Shown: positions 28,743 through 64,000 of the stretch, piece by piece
How the letters are laid out: each line of letters begins with the position of its first letter
Numbering within the stretch: the first letter of the stretch is position 1
From: Candidatus Woesearchaeota archaeon
Lineage (GTDB): Archaea; Nanobdellota; Nanobdellia; Woesearchaeales; 0-14-0-80-44-23
Assembly: GCA_038874135.1 (NCBI GenBank)
Contig: JAVZCZ010000001.1
Span: 64,001 to 128,000, forward strand
DNA: 64,000 nucleotides
Reading direction: 5' to 3'
Position numbers and translations under genes: made by a program
Notes under the pieces: generated by a model
The model's database searches: none
What the model saw: only the letters and a program-made list of their open reading frames with translations
What the model was told of the DNA's origin: nothing

Positions 28743-29033
28743 CCATCATCCTCTTAAAACTATTACACCTTCTATTTTGAGGTTTATTAATTTTTCTTTT
28801 TCCGCCATTTCTGAATTATTTTTGATGAAACAACATCAGATGAACTAAAATATTGACTTTTTTAACTCTATCTATTTCTCTATTTCAGAATTATTAATAC
28901 TTAGTAATTGGCTTTTCAGTGCAGCGATGCTTAAGGCAAATCAAATTTGCGAGTACCCCGAAAAGTTTTCTATTTTTGTGAAAATTCTTCAATTCCCTCT
29001 TCTAAAATGTTTTAAACAAAGATTACCATGTAA

Positions 29034-29561
29034 ATGAAAAAGGTAGGTAAGAGGTGGTCTGCATTGGAAGCAAAATATCTGGCGATGATTAATGAAGAAA
29101 TTTCAATGCTGGAGTGCGAGCCCGTCTTCAAGGATGTCACACGATTGGTTGAAAAGAATCCCGCGCTCACCCTTGAGGAGCTTATCAGCGAACTTTTGAG
29201 TGACAGGGACCTAGAAAAGGATGAGAAGCATCTTAGGGACTCAATAAGCTCTTACCTTAGCTCAGACAGAGCTTATTCTTCATCCCTGCTTTACTTCCTT
29301 GACCTTTCACAAATTGATATAGGTAGAGGTGCTAAGGGCTCCTACAATTATAGGGAGATCATTATTGATGGGCGCAGGCTCACTTCACTTAGGTTTGGAG
29401 AGCATCGCAGCGTGAGGGCAGTTCCTCTTTTTCAAGATGCAGTTGCTACGCTAAGGAACAGTCAGCTTTCAGAAAAGACGGTTAGGTATAAGGGACTTTA
29501 CATAGTTGTTTCTAGGGCTCAGCAGGGAGGCATGCCCTATGAGGTGATGCGCTTTGAATGA
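29034..29561 (+). CDS. candidate ubiquitin-like modifier precursor
   Basis: Ends LYIVVSRAQQGG-MPYEVMRFE (G165-G166 after a hydrophobic strand); first gene of the E2/JAB/E1 operon. Confidence 0.5.
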   Translation: MKKVGKRWSALEAKYLAMINEEISMLECEPVFKDVTRLVEKNPALTLEELISELLSDRDLEKDEKHLRDSISSYLSSDRAYSSSLLYFLDLSQIDIGRGAKGSYNYREIIIDGRRLTSLRFGEHRSVRAVPLFQDAVATLRNSQLSEKTVRYKGLYIVVSRAQQGGMPYEVMRFE

Positions 29562-30714
29562 AATAGTTGAGAGCCCCCTTGAACGCCTGCTCTCTTCAAG
29601 AGAGTGTGTTTTGACTGAAGGGAATGTTTATTCCCTGCTGCCGCCAGGAGTTGGAAGGCTGCGGGCTGTTATAATGGGGATTAAGCTTTCTGCAGAAAAG
29701 ATTTTTGAAACTGTTGAGCTGGACCGCTTCCTAATTCTTGAAAATCCCGAACGGGCTTATGAGCTTGCTGTGAAAAACATATCTAAAGATTATGAGATGA
29801 GGAGCATCATGCCTGATCCTCTTACTGAGCTGGCTTTTGGGCTTGGTGGAATTTTTACAAACCCCGCATTTTATGGGGCTGCTAGAATTCTAGAAAATGC
29901 TCTGCAAGGCGGCATCAATAAGCTAAATCAGCTGGATCTCGATGAAGTAATATTTCAGATTATAAGCAATTCGTGCCGAAAGGGCTTTTTTTCAGCAGGT
30001 TTAAGCCTGGCTTCAGGAGGTAAGATAATTCCAATTTATCCCTGTGCTGATTTAGAAGCCGATTCTGATATATGGCTGGAGGGGCGCTCATACTCTTTTG
30101 GTAAGAATAGGCTCTGGAAGAATGAGCTAACTCTTCTTCACTGGAATGCTTTTGAAAAATTTCTGCAGGAATTCTCATTTCAGGTTGGGATTAGGAGCTT
30201 TCATACTGGTTTGGAAAATATAAGTGAAGAATTAGCATCAAAGGGATTTGTAGAGAGGCATCCTTTTGGAATATTGAAGGTTTCAGAGATGGGAGAAGAT
30301 AGATACTACGCTTACAAATGGCTTAATTCTGGAAGGCAGTATGTCATCACGGATAGGACGAGCGGGGAGCAGTTTCTCTTTCCTACTGCCAGAATAGCTA
30401 CTCTTGTTAGAGTTTCTTCAGGCCGCCTCCTGGATCCCCTCCCGACTTTTTATGTAGTTGAGAGGTACTCTCACCCATTTGTTAAGGATTTTGGTTCAGG
30501 TTTTCAGATGGCTTGTATTGATGGCTCTTTTGTCTCTTCTGAACTGAGCAGATGCTCAAGTGTTCCGGCTAAATATTCTGCAGCCCTTAACATTGCGGAA
30601 AAAACCATGATTCACGGTTATGAGGCGGGAACTTCAGCCCTGCATCCATATCACCTGCTTGATGTTTCAAATTTTAAGAGTGAGCGGCAGGCGTATTTGG
30701 CAAGCACTGGATGA
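29554..30714 (+). CDS. E2/UBC-like protein with large N-terminal region
   Basis: PTFYVVERYSHPFVKDFGSGFQMACIDG resembles the E2 HPN...C active-site segment (H307, C321). Confidence 0.55.
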   Translation: MNEIVESPLERLLSSRECVLTEGNVYSLLPPGVGRLRAVIMGIKLSAEKIFETVELDRFLILENPERAYELAVKNISKDYEMRSIMPDPLTELAFGLGGIFTNPAFYGAARILENALQGGINKLNQLDLDEVIFQIISNSCRKGFFSAGLSLASGGKIIPIYPCADLEADSDIWLEGRSYSFGKNRLWKNELTLLHWNAFEKFLQEFSFQVGIRSFHTGLENISEELASKGFVERHPFGILKVSEMGEDRYYAYKWLNSGRQYVITDRTSGEQFLFPTARIATLVRVSSGRLLDPLPTFYVVERYSHPFVKDFGSGFQMACIDGSFVSSELSRCSSVPAKYSAALNIAEKTMIHGYEAGTSALHPYHLLDVSNFKSERQAYLASTG

Positions 30715-30734
30715 ATGCTAAGGGGTGGTTTTGA

Positions 30735-32117
30735 ATGGCTGGGAGGAAGGTGAGGAGGACTTTAGAGTTGGCTTCACTTTCTGAATTGTTGGATTCTGAA
30801 TTTTCTAGTATAAGAATAACTGATTATGCTTTAAAGAAGATTCGGCTCTACTCAAGCTTGACTACTCAAATCTTTGGATCTGAGTTGGAGTGTGGCGGCT
30901 TTCTTCTTGGCGAATCCGGCTCCGGAATTGTTGAAGATGCAGCACTTTTTCCCAAGCAGGAGGTGAGCAGGTTTTACTACTTGGGAGACCCTTCTTATCA
31001 GCATCTGATTCTGAGTGAGATTTCAGATTTGTCTGAGCTGAGCATATTGGGATGGTGGCACAGCCACAATTCAATGCCCGCATTTCACTCATATGTGGAT
31101 GAGCAAAATTTTGAAGCCCTTTTTAGGTCAATTTCAAATTACAACCGAAAAAAGATTTTTGAATTTAGGAATCCTGTGGACGGGATTGATTTTGAAGGAG
31201 CCGATTCTCTGCGTATCAGACTTACGGATTCTCGCACTGTTGAGATTTCAGGGCTGATGCCTAACTCTCAAGTATCTGCTTTTGAAGTTGAGGTAGTTTC
31301 TTCAGGATTTGCGTACAGCATAGTTGTTAGCTCTTCAGATGAGAATGGTGCTTATGCAGAGGTGATGTTTGAAGAGCCAGGCACTGGTTCAATATTAAAG
31401 CGTATTGCTCAGATAAGTGTTCTGCAATCGCAACAGCACTTTGATGAGGATGATTCTGCTCTCATTTCCTTATTATCTGAGGAGATAAAGAAAAAGATAA
31501 TTCCAGTAGAGCATGTAAAATCTGACAAGGATTCGGCATCTCCTGATCCTATAGTTGTGGGTAAAATACCGGCTGAAGAGAACGAATATTTGAGTGAGAA
31601 CTGCGTTCGCCCTGAAAACATCTCACTTTTAGGAGTAAGAGCTCTGCCTCCTGCACGAAACCTGGAAGGCTGTGAATGTCTAACTCTGGAGCACTTAAAA
31701 TATGGATATGAAGTTGAGTGTGTTATTCAAAATGCTGAGAATGTTCTTGAAAGTTATTACCGTGCAAGAAGTTCGGGTTCAGCTGAGTTAACATTTGATT
31801 CAGCTTATGAGATGTCTGCTCTTTCTGAACTTGCACGATACTATTCCATTTTAAATCAGGTAATATGCAATGGCGGTAATGAGTTTGAAGATTCCTTGTT
31901 GAAGAAGGCTTATACTCTAAATTTGAGGATGCTTGAGGTGGCTGAGCAGGCACTTTCTTCAATTGAGTTTAGCATAAAGTGCGAGCTCTCTAAAAACCAT
32001 CTTTTTTTATCCCTTTTGGGAATAATTTCACCATCTGTTGAGGAGAAGCTTCGTAGCTATGAGCAGGCGAGAGCTCAGATAATAAAATCCTTTAGGCTGA
32101 CCAGAAATGAATATTAA
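30735..32117 (+). CDS. JAB/MPN+ (JAMM) metalloprotease with C-terminal helical extension
   Basis: ECGGFLLG plus GWWHSHNSMPAFHSYVD = E...HxHx7Sx2D. Confidence 0.88.
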   Translation: MAGRKVRRTLELASLSELLDSEFSSIRITDYALKKIRLYSSLTTQIFGSELECGGFLLGESGSGIVEDAALFPKQEVSRFYYLGDPSYQHLILSEISDLSELSILGWWHSHNSMPAFHSYVDEQNFEALFRSISNYNRKKIFEFRNPVDGIDFEGADSLRIRLTDSRTVEISGLMPNSQVSAFEVEVVSSGFAYSIVVSSSDENGAYAEVMFEEPGTGSILKRIAQISVLQSQQHFDEDDSALISLLSEEIKKKIIPVEHVKSDKDSASPDPIVVGKIPAEENEYLSENCVRPENISLLGVRALPPARNLEGCECLTLEHLKYGYEVECVIQNAENVLESYYRARSSGSAELTFDSAYEMSALSELARYYSILNQVICNGGNEFEDSLLKKAYTLNLRMLEVAEQALSSIEFSIKCELSKNHLFLSLLGIISPSVEEKLRSYEQARAQIIKSFRLTRNEY

Positions 32118-33753
32118 AAAGTTTTTTTCAGGAAGACTAAAAAGCGATGCAGCTTATGATTTGATACAGAAGGAGAATTGTGAGTATTCTCCTAATAGCG
32201 TTCAGCACTTGTCTTTGGAGCAGGCGCTCAGAGATTGCCTTATTGGGATAAAGCAGGATGATAATTTGTCTCTAGTTTTTGACAGACAGGCAAAAATTTC
32301 CGGTTGGAAGCAGGATGCCCTTTTGAAATCCTCAGTTGCCATCTTTGGCTCTTCTCCAGCTTCAAATTATCTCGCGGCAGGGCTTTCTGCGCTTGGAGTT
32401 GGGCGTATATACTTAATTCCCGAATCTGCGAAGGCTCCGTCTTCTCAGGAGTTTCTCTCACGATTGGGGTCAAGGTCTATGCCAAGTGGTGATGGCTTGG
32501 AGTACTGGTTGAACTGCAGGTTTCAGAAGAGTCCCCAGTGCAGGGTTTACCTTCTCCGCTCAGCCAGTGAGCTATTCGCATTTAGCATTCCTGACATTGT
32601 TTTAGATGCGTCTCATAATTTAGAAGCCAAGCTTGACGCTCTGGACTTCTCTGCTTCACTGTCCGTTCCTCTGCTTTCGGTTTCTTTTAATGGTTATTCC
32701 TCTCTTGTTTCAGCAGTGTTTCCTGGAGGCGCTTCTGATTTTTCAGGAAGGGGCTATCCGGGGATTTATTATCTTAAAGAGGCTGATGCTCGCAATTCTA
32801 ATTATTTTAACGGTTTTAATATGGCTGCCTGCGGAGTTGCTTCAGGGATTGTTTTGGATATTGTTAGAAAGTTTCTTATGCCCCTCAGCCAGGATGTTTT
32901 TCCAGAGCTTCCCTTCTATTATTCTTTGATTTCTGGCATCTCATATGGTGAGAGCGCTCTTAAATCTGCTTATGAAGATTTTTGCGGATTAGAAGGCATT
33001 TCGGAAAAGATGGTTGCTTCTCAAAAATTGCGGTGCCTGCTTGTTGGGGCTGGCGCTCTCGGGAACTTTGCAGCTTTGGCCCTTTGCCTTTCAGGAATTA
33101 GTGTGGATATAGCAGACTTTGATTCTGTGGAGCTTACCAATGCTAACAGGCAGATTTTAATCTCTGATAGGGATTCCATAGCTTTTGGAAGGAATAAGGC
33201 TGAGGTTCTTTCAGAACGGCTTAGAGAGTTGGGAGCTGACTGCACATTCATAAGGGGCATTGTTTCAAAAGGTGGTGTTCCTGAGGGTTATGCTCTGATT
33301 GATAAAACCTTTGTTCAGAAGAATGAATATGGTTGCATTTTGGGGTGCGTGGATAATCCCCTGGCGAGGGCGCTGTTAAATGAAATTGCTGTTCATCAGA
33401 GGATTCCTTTTTTTGATTCAGGCACTGAGCCTTTTTCAGGAAGCCTACGCTGTTACATTCCTGATATGAGCCCCTGCTTAGACTGCCAGGTTGGCATTTA
33501 TGAGCTAGCTCGCATCTGGGAGGAGCGCACTTTACAGAGGGATTCGTGTTCCCTCTCAGAAAAGGAGCCGAGTGTTGTAATTTCTAATATGTTGTTAGGC
33601 TCTGCGCTTGGCGGAGAATTGCTGAGGTTCTTGATTTTGCAAGAGTCTTTTCTTCCCCTTCTTTATGATTCCAGCAATCTTCACCCGCTCTTATTTTCAG
33701 GGGTAACTCCCGCTCCTTCAAAGAGCTGTTCATGTACTTCAAAAACAGATTAA
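32107..33753 (+). CDS. E1-like enzyme with tandem ThiF domains (inactive + active)
   Basis: N-domain FDRQ..ISGWKQ..L...VAIFGSSPAS (degenerate loop); C-domain VGAGALG, DFDSVELTNANRQ, NKAE, GCVDN..AR, CLDC, DSC, terminal CSC. Confidence 0.88.
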   Translation: MNIKKFFSGRLKSDAAYDLIQKENCEYSPNSVQHLSLEQALRDCLIGIKQDDNLSLVFDRQAKISGWKQDALLKSSVAIFGSSPASNYLAAGLSALGVGRIYLIPESAKAPSSQEFLSRLGSRSMPSGDGLEYWLNCRFQKSPQCRVYLLRSASELFAFSIPDIVLDASHNLEAKLDALDFSASLSVPLLSVSFNGYSSLVSAVFPGGASDFSGRGYPGIYYLKEADARNSNYFNGFNMAACGVASGIVLDIVRKFLMPLSQDVFPELPFYYSLISGISYGESALKSAYEDFCGLEGISEKMVASQKLRCLLVGAGALGNFAALALCLSGISVDIADFDSVELTNANRQILISDRDSIAFGRNKAEVLSERLRELGADCTFIRGIVSKGGVPEGYALIDKTFVQKNEYGCILGCVDNPLARALLNEIAVHQRIPFFDSGTEPFSGSLRCYIPDMSPCLDCQVGIYELARIWEERTLQRDSCSLSEKEPSVVISNMLLGSALGGELLRFLILQESFLPLLYDSSNLHPLLFSGVTPAPSKSCSCTSKTD

Positions 33754-33809: not shown

Positions 33810-34430
33810 GTGATTATGAAATTGGCGAGATTGGGGGCATTCATCTTAGTATTCCTTTTAGGCTGGCTCTCCAGCCTAGCATATTCTGAAATATCAACAT
33901 ATAAGCGCCAAGCAGCACTCATAGAAGAGTTTTACGATAAAGAAGCTCCTTACGCTCAATATAAATCAGCAGTTCAGCTGGCAAACCCGAATCGGGACAT
34001 GCTGAGAAGTGTGGCTTCGGAAGTTTCATCAGAAGTGGCTTCCCTATTAAACAAACAGGAGGGGCCAAGAGCGCCTCCAGACAGGATTACTGAAAAGCAG
34101 ATTTATGTCTTTAGAGATAAGGTTATACTTGACATTCCAAATGCTGAGTGGGCTTCCTTTACTCCAACTCATTCGATGGAGCCAGTTCTGAACGAGAACT
34201 CAAACGCAATTGAGGTCAAACCTTCTTCAGAATCCGAAATTCAAGTTGGTGACATAATCGCTTACAGGTCAGAATATGCTGAGGGCACGATAATCCACAG
34301 GGTAATTTCAATAGGCTCGGATGAGAAGGGATGGTTCTGTATTGCTAAGGGAGATAACAATCCCAACCCCGACCCTGGCAAGATAAGATTCAGTCAGATT
34401 GAAAGCGTCGTAGTTGCCATAATATATTAA
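33810..34430 (+). CDS. signal peptidase I-like (S26) protein
   Basis: N-terminal TM; HSMEP, VGDII, IIHRV, KGDNN..PD. Confidence 0.85.
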   Translation: MIMKLARLGAFILVFLLGWLSSLAYSEISTYKRQAALIEEFYDKEAPYAQYKSAVQLANPNRDMLRSVASEVSSEVASLLNKQEGPRAPPDRITEKQIYVFRDKVILDIPNAEWASFTPTHSMEPVLNENSNAIEVKPSSESEIQVGDIIAYRSEYAEGTIIHRVISIGSDEKGWFCIAKGDNNPNPDPGKIRFSQIESVVVAIIY

Positions 34431-34482
34431 TAGTTCAAATTCATACTTTTTAAAAGCAGGACATATATGGAGGATTAACAAG

Positions 34483-35223
34483 ATGGGTGATGAACACTCC
34501 CTGGAAGAGAAAGTGAAGCGTTTTCCAGATGAAACATTAGAATATTATAACGAATTTACCTCTCCCTTAGAGGTTGGAGCTGCTGAACTTATAGAAGAAT
34601 TGCTCAGAACTTCCAGCCTTGGAGGATTTCTAGGCTATTCAGAAAGTCTAATTGATATAAAGAGAATGGACTATGAGGTTTTAAATGCACATGGTGTTTC
34701 TTACCATAAGATAGTTGAAAATTTGGAGAAGATTAAGGAAGTGGCAATGCAGCAGTACTCTCAGAGTTCTCTTAAGCATAAGCGCGGCATAGTTTTTTAT
34801 CTTAACAACAACTATGAATTAGTTAGAGATGAAGCAGCTAAACATAAAAATCAGCTGATTACTTTTTTGAAGAAGATTTTGCTTGGCAAAAGCGCCGGCG
34901 ATAATGAAAAGGCTCATTTCAGAGTCTCAATAAGGAAATTGCAGGATGCATATTGTCCCTGGAGTGTAATTCCGGAGTCTCAGAAAGAGCTGAGTGCATT
35001 AAAATGCAGTTACACACTCTCTCCTAATTATGAAATCTTCATTGAGAACCTGCAAAATGGCAGCTCTTTCAGGTTCAACAACTTGCAGCTTCACATGATA
35101 AGTGAACATAAGTTTTTTGAAGGCAGGTACACTGCAATTGCTCATAACTTTATAGTGCACAACTATTACAGAGTAGAACCTCTGAATATCATCAAGACAC
35201 TTGAACTTGGCAGAAATTATTAA
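34483..35223 (+). CDS. hypothetical protein
   Basis: 246-aa ORF with GGAGG SD; GGFLG, CPW, HMISEHKFFEG, YRVEP look like conserved family motifs; function unknown. Confidence 0.6.
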   Translation: MGDEHSLEEKVKRFPDETLEYYNEFTSPLEVGAAELIEELLRTSSLGGFLGYSESLIDIKRMDYEVLNAHGVSYHKIVENLEKIKEVAMQQYSQSSLKHKRGIVFYLNNNYELVRDEAAKHKNQLITFLKKILLGKSAGDNEKAHFRVSIRKLQDAYCPWSVIPESQKELSALKCSYTLSPNYEIFIENLQNGSSFRFNNLQLHMISEHKFFEGRYTAIAHNFIVHNYYRVEPLNIIKTLELGRNY

Positions 35224-60011: not shown

Positions 60012-61479
<1,468 letters not shown>

Positions 61480-61524
61480 TTTTATTTTAATCTCTCATAT
61501 CCGCCTTTATATTCATAGGAGGAT

Positions 61525-61651
61525 GGGCCCGTAGCTCAGTCTGGTAGAGCACCACCCTTGCACGCTTTGTATGAGCAAAGAACGGCGGGGGCCTCGGGTT
61601 CAAAAAAGTCCATCATTAATCTGGTGGGCTGTGGAATTCCCGACGGGTCCA
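61525..61651 (+). tRNA. tRNA-Ala(TGC) with two introns (61563-61582 at 37/38; 61605-61637 at 59/60)
   Basis: Removing both segments gives a 74-nt cloverleaf GGGCCCG...CTTGCAC...TCGGG-TTCAAAT-CCCGA-CGGGTCC-A; BHB-like junctions. Confidence 0.88.
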
Positions 61652-61761
61652 TTCCTTTCAAAATATTCACGCTCACAAGTTGAGTGCAGCTGAGCATTAC
61701 AGGGTAATGCTGAGCGAAGGGTTGATGTTAATGAGACCATGCATAGGAAGCAGAATAGGAT

Positions 61762-64000
61762 GAAGCTGTCAGATGGATGACTCGGCTTAAAACGCCGATG
61801 AAGGATGCGACAAGCAGCATTATGCTCCGGCGAGCCGCATGTGGGCTTTGAACCGGAGGTTTCCGAATGGGAATCCTGCCCCGCGAGGGGCGATCCGAAA
61901 GGATCGGGAACGCAGGGAACTAAAACATTTCAGTACCTGCAGGAAGAGAAATCAATTGAGATGCGGTTAGTAACAGCGAGTGAAAGCCGCTCAGGGCAAA
62001 CTGAATTTCGCTCCGCAAGGTGCGAAAGATGTGGTGTTGTAGGACCGCATGCACGGTTCTTTATCCGGGAATCCAAACTCTCTTGAAACAGAGGGCCTTA
62101 GAGGGTGAAAGCCCCGTAGGAGTAACTGGGTAGAGAATCTGGCGAGTTCCTGAGTACCGCACATCGGATATTGTGCGGGAATCTGGGAGGCATCAACTTC
62201 CAACCCTAAATACGTTTTAAGTCCGATAGAGGAGAAGTACCGCGAGGGAAAGTTGAAAAGAACCCATAACAGGGAGTTAAAAGAGCCTGAAATCTGGCAG
62301 CGACAGCGTGCTAGGGCACTACGGTGTTCTAGCGTTCGTTTTGAATAACGAGCCAGGGAGTATGCTTGAGTGGCGAGGTTAACTGATGAAGGTAGCCGAA
62401 GCGAAAGCGAGTTTCCGCAGCCCGCAAGGGTGAGGGAACGGGTGTGAAAGCGCCTTGAGTCACTTGAGCACGACCCGAAACCGGGTGATCTATGCCAGGG
62501 TAGGGTGAAGCGGGGATAAAACCCCGTGGAGGCCCGAAGAGGTTCTACGTACAAGTGTTCTCGTAACCTTGGTATAGGGGTGAAAAGCCCATCGAACCCG
62601 GTGATAGCTGGTTCCGATCGAATCTGGCCGCAGTCAGGCCTCAGGCGAGACTGCCTAAAAGGTAGAGATACGGATTGGGGATTTAGGTTCCGAAAGGGAT
62701 CGGTCCCTTGTCCAACTCCGAATTTTTAGGCGTCGTAGACCCTGAGAGACGGGGTGTCTGGGTTAAGCTTGACATCCGAGAGGGGAACAACCCAGATTGT
62801 GGTTAAGGTCCCTAAAATTGGCTAAGTGTCAAAGGACGAAGAGTGTCTGTAGCCATAGACAGCTGGGAGGTTGGCTTAGAAGCAGCAACCCTTTAAAAAG
62901 TGCGTAACAGCTTACCAGTCAAGGTTACAGGCCTCCAAAACGGACGGGACTAAGCCAATTACCGATACCACAAGCGATGAAAATCTGCGGTAGATCGGTG
63001 TTCTGCAAGGGCAGAAGCGCTTCCGAGAGGAAACGTGGACCTTGTGGAAATAATAATCCTGGCAAGAGTAGGATCCAAGCAGAGTGAGAATCTCTGCCGC
63101 CGAAAGGGCTAGGTTTCCTTGACAATGCAGTTCAGTCAAGGGTTAGTCGGTCCTAACCGCGCCCCTAGCTGGGAGTCGCGGGACAGGGAAACGGGTTAAT
63201 ATTCCCGTACTGCTCAAGTATGTGCGGCAACGCAGGTTGGATTCCTGACGTTTCGGGCTAGGTTGACATGAACCGTCGTTCATGTTAATCAGAATAGGTC
63301 GGGGGAGTATCATAATGATGAGAACCCGAGCAAGCTGAGACGAGCTGGCGCACGCCAGTTCAGCCGATGCCTGGAACCCGTGAAAAAGGAATCCAAAAAA
63401 ATCTTGAGCAACCGTACCAAGAACCGGCACAGGTGCCCCTGGGTGAGAAGCCCAAGGCGTGATAGGGATAATCCGGGTAAGGGAACTCGGCAAATTGGCC
63501 CCGTACCTTCGGTATAAGGGGTCCCTGCCTTCGTGCTCGTAAGAGTGCGAAAACAGGGCGCAGTGACTAGGGGGGTCTGACTGTTTAACAAAAACACAAC
63601 ATTCCGCTATCCCGAAAGGGGTTGAATGGAATGTGACATCTGCCCAGTACCTGTACTTCAAACTCCGGTCCAACGGAGCTAAGAGCAGGCAAACGGCGGG
63701 GGTAACTATAACTCTCTTAAGGTAGCGAAATACCTTGTCGTTTGAATGACGACGCGCATGAGTGATGTAACAAGATCCTCACTGTCCCTACCTGGAACCT
63801 ACTGAACATCCTGTTCTGGTGTGGAGGCCAGAGTTTCCCAGTGGGAAGTGAAGACCCCGTGAAACTTTACTGTAGCTAGTTGCTGCAATTCGGACTTCTT
63901 TGTAAAGAGTAGATGGGAGTTGCTTGAAGACCTAATCGAGAGATTGGGTTTAGACGAAAGTGTAACACCATCCTAAGAAATCAGAATTGCTAACCCGAAT
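61762..64000 (+). rRNA. rrl: 23S rRNA (partial; runs off the window; 5' end approximate)
   Basis: GGATGACTCGGCT, GAACTAAAACATTTCAGTA, AGTACCGCGAGGGAAAG, GTAACTATAAC.CTCTTAAGGTAGCGAAA, AAGACCCCGTG. Confidence 0.97.

Follow-up and report, generated by a model that had tools for sequence, protein, structure and literature searches.

To our knowledge, E2-dependent conjugation of the ubiquitin type is known in prokaryotes from three bacterial families (CBASS Cap2, Bil and Bub) and from eukaryote-like operons in a few archaea, and all the bacterial families that we know of are tied to phage defence. The subject of this article is a four-gene cassette in a stretch of 64,000 nt from Candidatus Woesearchaeota archaeon (assembly GCA_038874135.1, contig JAVZCZ010000001.1, forward strand 64,001-128,000). 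This stretch is called the window, and positions are given in its coordinates, with 1 as the first letter of the 64 kb. The operon, located at 29034-33753 on the + strand, encodes a ubiquitin-like protein (Ubl), a protein resembling ubiquitin-conjugating enzymes (E2), a JAB/JAMM metallopeptidase and an activating enzyme (E1). It probably constitutes a self-contained Ubl conjugation system, in which an E1-E2 relay is combined with maturation and tag removal by the JAB peptidase, and in which the N-terminal domain of the E2-like protein would choose the targets. A separate family of this kind would broaden the view of how and why Ubl conjugation evolved.

Comparison with Described Conjugation Systems

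BilABCD systems of Types I and II correspond to operon types 6d and 6c of Iyer et al. 2006 (Chambers et al., PMC10557695). The cassette and the Bil operons have in common the order Ubl-E2-JAB-E1, the lack of a ligase (E3) gene in the operon, and a Ubl made with a C-terminal extension that is presumably trimmed by the JAB protein. Additionally, the E1 of both contains an inactive and an active adenylation domain and a zinc site composed of a CxxC in the crossover loop and a CxC near the C-terminus, with a cysteine located between the two. Such a zinc layout has been described for Type II BilD (PMC10557695).

The differences from Bil are nevertheless numerous. No PADLOC model for BilA, BilB or BilC matched the cassette, and BilD matched at E 1.2e-3, more weakly than generic Cap2-type E1 models. 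The E2-like protein bears a classical His-Pro before the cysteine, whereas Type I has a His after the cysteine and Type II a CEHH motif; it also has a 220-aa N-terminal domain, while the JAB protein is three times and the Ubl twice as long as in Bil. In E1, the stretch with the candidate catalytic cysteine is much shorter, at 21 residues after the CxxC as opposed to ~74 in E. aridi BilD, and no separate helical CYS domain is apparent in this short insertion. Moreover, the host is an archaeon, AAA+ unfoldases accompany the cassette in relatives, and its surroundings do not suggest a defence island. Judged by its sequence features, the cassette is Bil-like in layout but belongs to a separate family. 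The initial annotation of this DNA had remarked that the enlarged Ubl, E2 and JAB proteins fit no recognised type. Neither Pfam nor PADLOC has a model matching the Ubl or placing the E2-like protein.

The Bub system (6E/DUF6527; Ye et al., PMC11601596) acts through Ser/Tyr oxyesters, without catalytic cysteines, and comprises fused genes and a DUF6527 serine protease. The cassette consists of unfused genes, with no DUF6527 match in or beside the operon, and its two cysteines are invariant; the cysteines and the missing DUF6527 set it apart from Bub. The operons of Caldiarchaeum subterraneum and Asgard archaea (PMC3082918, PMC5654768) resemble it in that they encode an archaeal Ubl, E1, E2 and Rpn11-like JAB protein, with HPx...C kept in the E2. 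However, the E2 of these systems is recognised by Pfam as UQ_con, their Ubl belongs to the ubiquitin family and a RING E3 is present, whereas here no UQ_con or ubiquitin model matched and no RING protein is found in the operon, which places the cassette outside this type.

Haloarchaeal sampylation (SAMP/UbaA/HvJAMM1) uses no E2, its UbaA is a single-domain MoeB-type homodimer, and SAMPs belong to the ThiS/MoaD family. The presence of an E2-like gene here, along with a pseudo-dimeric E1, and the lack of any ThiS/MoaD (PF02597) match in the genome distinguish the cassette from sampylation. The Pup-Mpa/ARC-proteasome system of Actinomycetota is similar in logic only, as it couples a small tag to a dedicated OB-domain AAA+ unfoldase, an arrangement that recurs in seven DPANN relatives of the cassette, where the AAA protein matches Prot_ATP_ID_OB_C. 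In contrast, Pup is disordered and ligated by the glutamine-synthetase-like PafA, with no E1, E2 or JAB protein, and no AAA+ gene is linked to the cassette in the window. A full-text literature search of incomplete coverage found no description of such a DPANN system or of the bacterial form with an AAA+ gene discussed below.

The E1 Enzyme and Its Predicted Contact with the Ubl

The E1 gene (P0004, 548 aa; 32107..33753, + strand) overlaps the JAB gene by 11 bp, and its product is the sole ThiF-family protein encoded in the source genome. The ThiF match (1.9e-38) falls into two stretches. The first, at residues ~58-300 (nt 32278-33006, +), is read as an inactive adenylation domain in which the fold signature is kept and the nucleotide loop lost, while the second, at residues 306-534 (nt 33022-33708, +), is an active domain with the full motif set (G314xG316xxG319, D337, N347-R348-Q349, K364 and D416). 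A zinc site is composed of C457xxC460 and C541xC543, and C481 (nt 33547-33549, +) is the candidate catalytic cysteine. In its sequence, P0004 has the single-chain inactive-plus-active layout of UBA1 and BilD. The tandem ThiF domains, zinc-binding cysteines and candidate catalytic cysteine that had been proposed for this protein were therefore all recognised, the second half being the complete one.

In eight E1 homologues with 26-43% identity, all of the listed active-domain residues are invariant, as are C457, C460 and S480-C481, and the C-terminal CxC is mostly conserved. The best sequence matches of P0004 in the Protein Data Bank (PDB) are eukaryotic UBA3 and UBA1 (5e-11), ahead of bacterial ThiF and MoeB.

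The complex of E1 with Ubl residues 1-166 was predicted with a score of 0.72, compared with 0.00 for the best of three controls; 58 of 80 solved complexes score at this level, as do 2 of 110 mismatched pairs. The model runs agree in at least 94% of contacts, with a predicted local distance difference test (pLDDT) value of at least 77 for the partner. In this model, Ubl residues 160-166 are laid against E1 residues 314-319 (the GxGxxG), 414-418 (including D416) and 438-446. Since E1:Ubl complexes are well represented among solved ones, the docking pass may reflect likeness to known structures and is not proof of binding.

A sole E1 also invites a different explanation, in which it thiocarboxylates a small protein for tRNA 2-thiolation or cofactor synthesis, like UbaA/SAMP2 and Uba4/Urm1, and conjugation is at most a side activity. 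This sulfur-carrier role is very improbable, and it survives only because the source genome has no second ThiF gene, no ThiS/MoaD-family match was found in it, and one PP-loop ATP_bind_3 protein of NcsA/TtuA size is present. A dual function is known for archaeal SAMPs (PMC2948915). On the other hand, the E1 lacks a rhodanese domain, no sulfur-transfer gene adjoins the operon, the Ubl requires C-terminal processing, and ~88% of the related genomes searched have no cassette. Furthermore, the operon includes a Cys-invariant E2-like protein and a JAB protein, neither of which occurs in biosynthetic ThiS/MoaD operons (Iyer et al. 2006).

The E2-like Protein

The second gene (P0002, 386 aa; 29554..30714, + strand) begins with TTG and overlaps the Ubl gene by 8 bp. 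Residues 1-221 of its product form an N-terminal domain with no recognised fold, while residues 222-386 (nt 30217-30711, +) are predicted, from fold and motif, to be a UBC-like domain. This domain contains H307-P308-F309 (nt 30472-30480, +) and the putative catalytic cysteine C321 (nt 30514-30516, +), corresponding to the HPF...C site pointed out in the initial annotation. In an alignment of 65 homologous E2-like domains from archaea and bacteria, the cysteine is found in 65 of 65, P308 in 64, H307 in 59 and F309 in 55, and the residue preceding C321 is Ile in 55. As a sequence pattern, HP(F)-x(n)-IC is the classical E2 signature. The H307-P308 pair sits 14 residues N-terminal of C321, and no conserved His or Glu follows the cysteine.

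AlphaFold modelled P0002 with an average pLDDT of 77; in the C-terminal domain, most blocks of 10 residues have values of 84-95. In the model, this domain leads from a helix through an antiparallel meander to the HPF loop, which is followed by the cysteine and then by three helices. Fold-level matches of residues 222-386 were exclusively UBC, UEV and UFC1 proteins with near-whole target coverage, although Foldseek against the PDB gave none below E 1e-3. A UBC fold in 29554-30714 was one of the points on which the earlier reading had been made to depend, and these matches and the conserved motif are consistent with it.

It is improbable, but worth weighing, that the 386-aa protein is not an E2 but another cysteine enzyme or an adaptor (a peptidase, an E3-like protein or a substrate protein), and that the E1 conjugates directly, as in E2-less sampylation. 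Such an assignment would fit the failure of every E2-family sequence model to match P0002: for example, UQ_con and the Prok-E2_A-E models gave no match at E <= 5 in 17 cassette members. The ESM Atlas leads are also weak, all being below 0.9, with one of 0.81 to a cluster containing 11% Prok-E2_D; the model of P0002 in the Atlas is itself poor (pLDDT 0.33). UQ_con was likewise not found in 301 genomes of the phylum, a result that is little informative as control genomes were equally silent. What speaks for an E2 is that only the UBC superfamily appears at the fold level, covering nearly whole targets, that the invariant residues give HPx...(I)C in the right order with respect to the predicted strands and helices, and that the gene occupies the E2 position in a Bil-ordered operon.

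In several DPANN genomes, E2-like paralogues number 2-6 per locus (L043, L034, L030, L032, L028 and L016:2780-6325; loci are numbered with L and genomes with G). Some of them are short (~280 aa, mostly the UBC-like domain), others have an extra N-terminal domain, and this expansion recalls the eukaryotic multiplication of E2s. In four related genomes, a single in-frame stop (TAA/TGA) occurs within an E2-like match (G025:C1:7007-7696, G180:C9:8141-8839, G309:C31:5951-6439 and G344:C110:6596-7333); decay of the copies, splitting of the genes or errors in sequencing could account for this.

The Ubl Precursor and the JAB Peptidase

The first gene (29034..29561, + strand) encodes the Ubl precursor P0001 of 175 aa, which ends in ...VVSRAQQGG followed by MPYEVMRFE. 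The G165-G166 pair is encoded at nt 29526-29531 (+) and the 9-residue tail, presumably removed, at nt 29532-29558 (+). The first ~10 codons are uncertain, as homologues begin near residue 11. The predicted model is an elaborated beta-grasp in which inserts account for the doubled size; its last strand (residues 147-161) leads into QQGG, after which nine disordered residues follow. Foldseek against the PDB gave no match to this model below E 1e-3.

Homologous Ubl proteins end in Q(Q/E)GG in DPANN archaea and in KPQEGG in bacteria, while the tails after GG vary in sequence and in length, from 0 to ~10 residues, and three bacterial proteins end exactly at GG. A conserved GG with variable tails is the pattern expected of a protein that functions through its GG terminus once the tail has been cut off. 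Of the two features that had been proposed for this gene, a beta-grasp fold is predicted by the model, and a conserved GG is seen in the archaeal and bacterial homologues. In one same-family genome, G003 (L011:4612-5624), two tandem Ubl paralogues lack GG and end in ...SENPWERQ and ...NPIAGCPD....

The third gene (30735..32117, + strand) encodes P0003, a JAB/JAMM metallopeptidase of 460 aa, identified by a Prok-JAB match (E 1.4e-5; JAB domain at residues ~21-142) and by an exact JAMM motif, as had been noted. This motif consists of E52 (nt 30888-30890, +) and H109-x-H111-x7-S119-x2-D122 (HxHx7Sx2D, nt 31059-31100, +), and its residues are kept in at least 44 of 47 homologues. The C-terminal extension of ~320 aa has no assigned function and is conserved in the closest relative only. 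The best PDB sequence match is the Rpn11-like protein of Caldiarchaeum (6fjv), at E 0.009. A second, weaker Prok-JAB match of the source genome falls in a 248-aa ORF outside the window (G000:C1:424917-425063).

Operon Layout and Source Genome

The source genome is a single contig of 909,956 bp, scored 99.4% complete, and the DPANN host that had been suspected from the sequence is consistent with its 0.91 Mb and with nearest relatives labelled Woesearchaeota or Nanoarchaeota. The four open reading frames (ORFs) span 4.7 kb with two overlaps of 8 bp and 11 bp and one 20-bp gap, in agreement with the co-oriented, closely spaced arrangement behind an AT-rich region that had been described. That region (28743..29033, + strand) is a 291-bp intergenic spacer common to the divergent gene of an M50 peptidase, and it probably serves as the promoter of the operon. 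It contains a TATA-like stretch at 29001-29017, that is 17-33 nt 5' of the first ATG, and from this position the transcript leader would probably be short or absent. Downstream of the E1 stop codon, a T-rich stretch and a fresh TTTATATA element precede the next gene.

The overlaps and close spacing, the upstream spacer with its TATA-like stretch, and the downstream T-rich stretch with TTTATATA make the four genes look like one transcription unit. Its composition is not due to chance, as dozens of other genomes have these four families in an identical arrangement. A real function is also argued by the cost of four genes (4.7 kb) in a 0.9-Mb genome with a single E1. Among the runs listed, only three contain the locus, all of them hot-spring DNA runs from one study.

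Distribution and Genomic Context of the Cassette

With a word-indexed protein search, the Ubl and the E2-like protein each had a single relative, and a full HMMER scan with a 2-sequence profile returned only eight; whole-genome and E1-anchored searches were required to reveal the family. Other members of the same taxonomic order have homologues of the four genes in this arrangement, and one locus reads Ubl-E2-E1-JAB. The E1-anchored scan of 185,579 species genomes led to 80 loci, of which about 31 are from DPANN archaea (records titled Woese-, Pace-, Nano- or Aenigmatarchaeota). These contain E1 in 31 loci, E2-like genes in 29 (46 copies, at most 6 per locus), JAB in 28 and Ubl in 21. Most of the other loci, 41 of them in the tree, are bacterial with a cassette-type E1, and they belong to Thermodesulfobacteriota, Acidobacteriota, Methylomirabilota, Binatota and Acidithiobacillales. 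Of 401 high-quality genomes of the phylum, 48 matched an E2-like profile, and these matches cover 43 of the 281 genera. The expected co-occurrence of the four genes elsewhere therefore proved to be wide and to extend to a bacterial clade.

The 41 bacterial E1s group together with strong support in a quick tree, which is unrooted; with midpoint rooting, their clade is placed among the archaeal rows. A single transfer between archaea and bacteria is consistent with this placement, and its direction needs a root.

A recurrent partner of the cassette is an AAA+ unfoldase. In seven DPANN loci, a PAN/Mpa-type ATPase with a proteasomal-ATPase OB domain (weak match) lies directly upstream of the Ubl gene (L030:4079-5560, L034:2381-3862, L032:483-1991, L041:2198-3670, L031:1702-3246, L037:58-1647 and L026:11-631). 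In three other DPANN loci (L035, L050 and L053), its place is taken by an AAA_2 ATPase of the Clp type with a ClpB D2-small domain. About 33 bacterial loci also encode this Clp-type ATPase, and its gene usually separates the E2-like gene from the JAB gene. The bacterial five-gene form (L052-L103, for example L058:3085-8224) comprises a Ubl ending in KPQEGG, an E2-like protein of ~390 aa, a Clp-type AAA+ protein (AAA_2 and ClpB D2-small), a JAB protein of ~267 aa that has no Pfam match, and a two-domain E1 of 412 aa. PADLOC gave no match to the Ubl or E2 of this form.

The context of the cassette bears on a possible defence role, which had been suggested for the operon as an antiviral or host-interaction function. 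BilABCD tags phage tail proteins and thereby blocks assembly. By the same logic, the E2-like protein would recognise a protein of a virion or mobile element, and the Ubl tag would block assembly. The gene order and E1 layout are those of BilABCD, the distribution is patchy, the cassette occupies different chromosomal sites in different lineages, and the E2-like paralogues, of which a locus may have as many as six and whose N-terminal domains vary, show a diversification typical of conflict systems. However, none of the 17 members examined has a PADLOC match for the Ubl or the E2-like protein, the only Bil match (BilD) ranks below generic E1 models, and the AAA+ partner is absent from Bil features. 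The flanks of the DPANN cassettes vary between loci and are of a housekeeping type (RtcB, Hsp70, MetRS, FttA, Lhr, Hel308 and pyruvate kinase), with no defence gene in the ten loci inspected. In the window, the neighbours (a Trp/Tyr-type tRNA synthetase, a phosphoribosyltransferase, M50 and S26 peptidases, TctA, AdoMet decarboxylase and eIF2-gamma) are also housekeeping genes, with no defence gene among them. Scans of viral contigs with E1 and E2 patterns, which are of low sensitivity, found no relative. An antiviral function is therefore unlikely, and the earlier suggestion received no support.

Two further observations concern these loci. A Ser/Thr kinase family adjoins the cassette in five DPANN loci (L038:9315-10970, L039:9302-10783, L030:1323-2951, L041:8375-10204 and L050:8429-9298). 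Eight loci (L025, L036, L039, L041, L042, L048, L051 and L053) are titled 'uncultured Methanosarcinales archaeon', with a cassette of the DPANN type and E1s that group with Woesearchaeota. The titles look mislabelled, as L025, L036 and L048 are contigs of G002, G015 and G011, genomes placed in the family or order of the source.

Proposed Mechanism and Possible Function

Gene order, motifs, conservation, distribution, fold-level similarity and the predicted E1:Ubl docking are the observations from which we infer the chemical steps and the targets of the conjugation system. The JAB peptidase would first trim the 9-residue tail off the Ubl precursor and expose G166. The active half of the pseudo-dimeric E1 would then bind the Ubl, with the QQGG tail entering the ATP site for adenylation, and the Ubl would move as a thioester to C481, in the loop after the CxxC zinc knuckle. 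From there it may be handed to C321 in the UBC-like domain of the E2-like protein, whose N-terminal domain probably picks targets without an E3, so that the Ubl is passed to target lysines. The JAB peptidase may also take the mark off again. With regard to the E2-dependent, E3-less tagging that had been proposed, the E2-dependent part is supported by the predicted fold and the motif, while the absence of an E3 holds for the operon only.

The leading idea on the consequence of tagging is recognition of tagged proteins by an AAA+ unfoldase ('tag and unfold/degrade'), because such an unfoldase is a recurrent operon partner in relatives. By analogy with these, it is the most likely outcome, if still a tentative one; antiviral action of the Bil type ranks second and a sulfur carrier a distant third. 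The source genome encodes proteasome alpha and beta subunits, one Cdc48-like ATPase and one PAN-like ATPase, with no other related ATPases, and a search with the L035 query found no Clp-type AAA+ protein in it. The unfoldase role would thus fall to the generic Cdc48 or PAN-like ATPases acting with the proteasome. The AAA+ link was invisible in the initial annotation, as the source genome has the minimal four-gene form.

Several points weigh against the reading of the operon as a conjugation pathway that ends in unfolding. The source cassette has no AAA+ gene of its own, which is why the unfoldase link is made here by analogy with relatives. Pfam, PADLOC and profile searches against PDB sequences gave no match of P0002 to any E2 family, and a few homologous Ubl genes are without a clear GG (the two G003 copies, L018 and L019). 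Additionally, the cassette is present in only ~12% of the phylum's genomes and is on that account not a core proteostasis pathway, and no RNA run containing the locus was among the runs listed.

In its widest form, the proposal is that the cassette is the minimal form of an undescribed prokaryotic tag-and-unfold pathway with a pseudo-dimeric E1 and a new HPx...Cys family of E2. Its tagged proteins would go to AAA+ unfoldases, of the PAN/Mpa or Clp type in relatives and Cdc48 or PAN with the proteasome in the source genome. DPANN archaea would be the group in which such a pathway arose or was maintained; it would have crossed a single time between archaea and bacteria and would be independent of the eukaryote-like systems of the Asgard/Caldiarchaeum lineage. 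Taken as a whole, this is possible but doubtful. If true, the pathway would be a functional analogue of the ubiquitin-proteasome system. The features of the family that deserve attention are its presence in about one in eight DPANN genomes, its own HPx...Cys E2 family, an E1 whose nearest solved relatives by sequence are eukaryotic UBA3 and UBA1, and the recurrent joining of an AAA+ unfoldase. The cassette offers a small, tractable system for asking whether 'tag then unfold' predates eukaryotes.

Other Features of the Window

Two genes follow the E1 gene at 33810-35223 and are kept in this position only in a same-genus relative (L024:8580-10050). They encode a 206-aa protein that weakly matches S26 signal peptidases and a 246-aa protein of no family, and neither belongs to the cassette in other genomes. 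At the end of the window (60012-64000), an archaeal 16S-23S rRNA operon has a G+C content of 0.51-0.53, compared with ~0.41 in the rest of the window, which is in keeping with a thermophile and with the hot-spring origin of the DNA runs that contain the locus.

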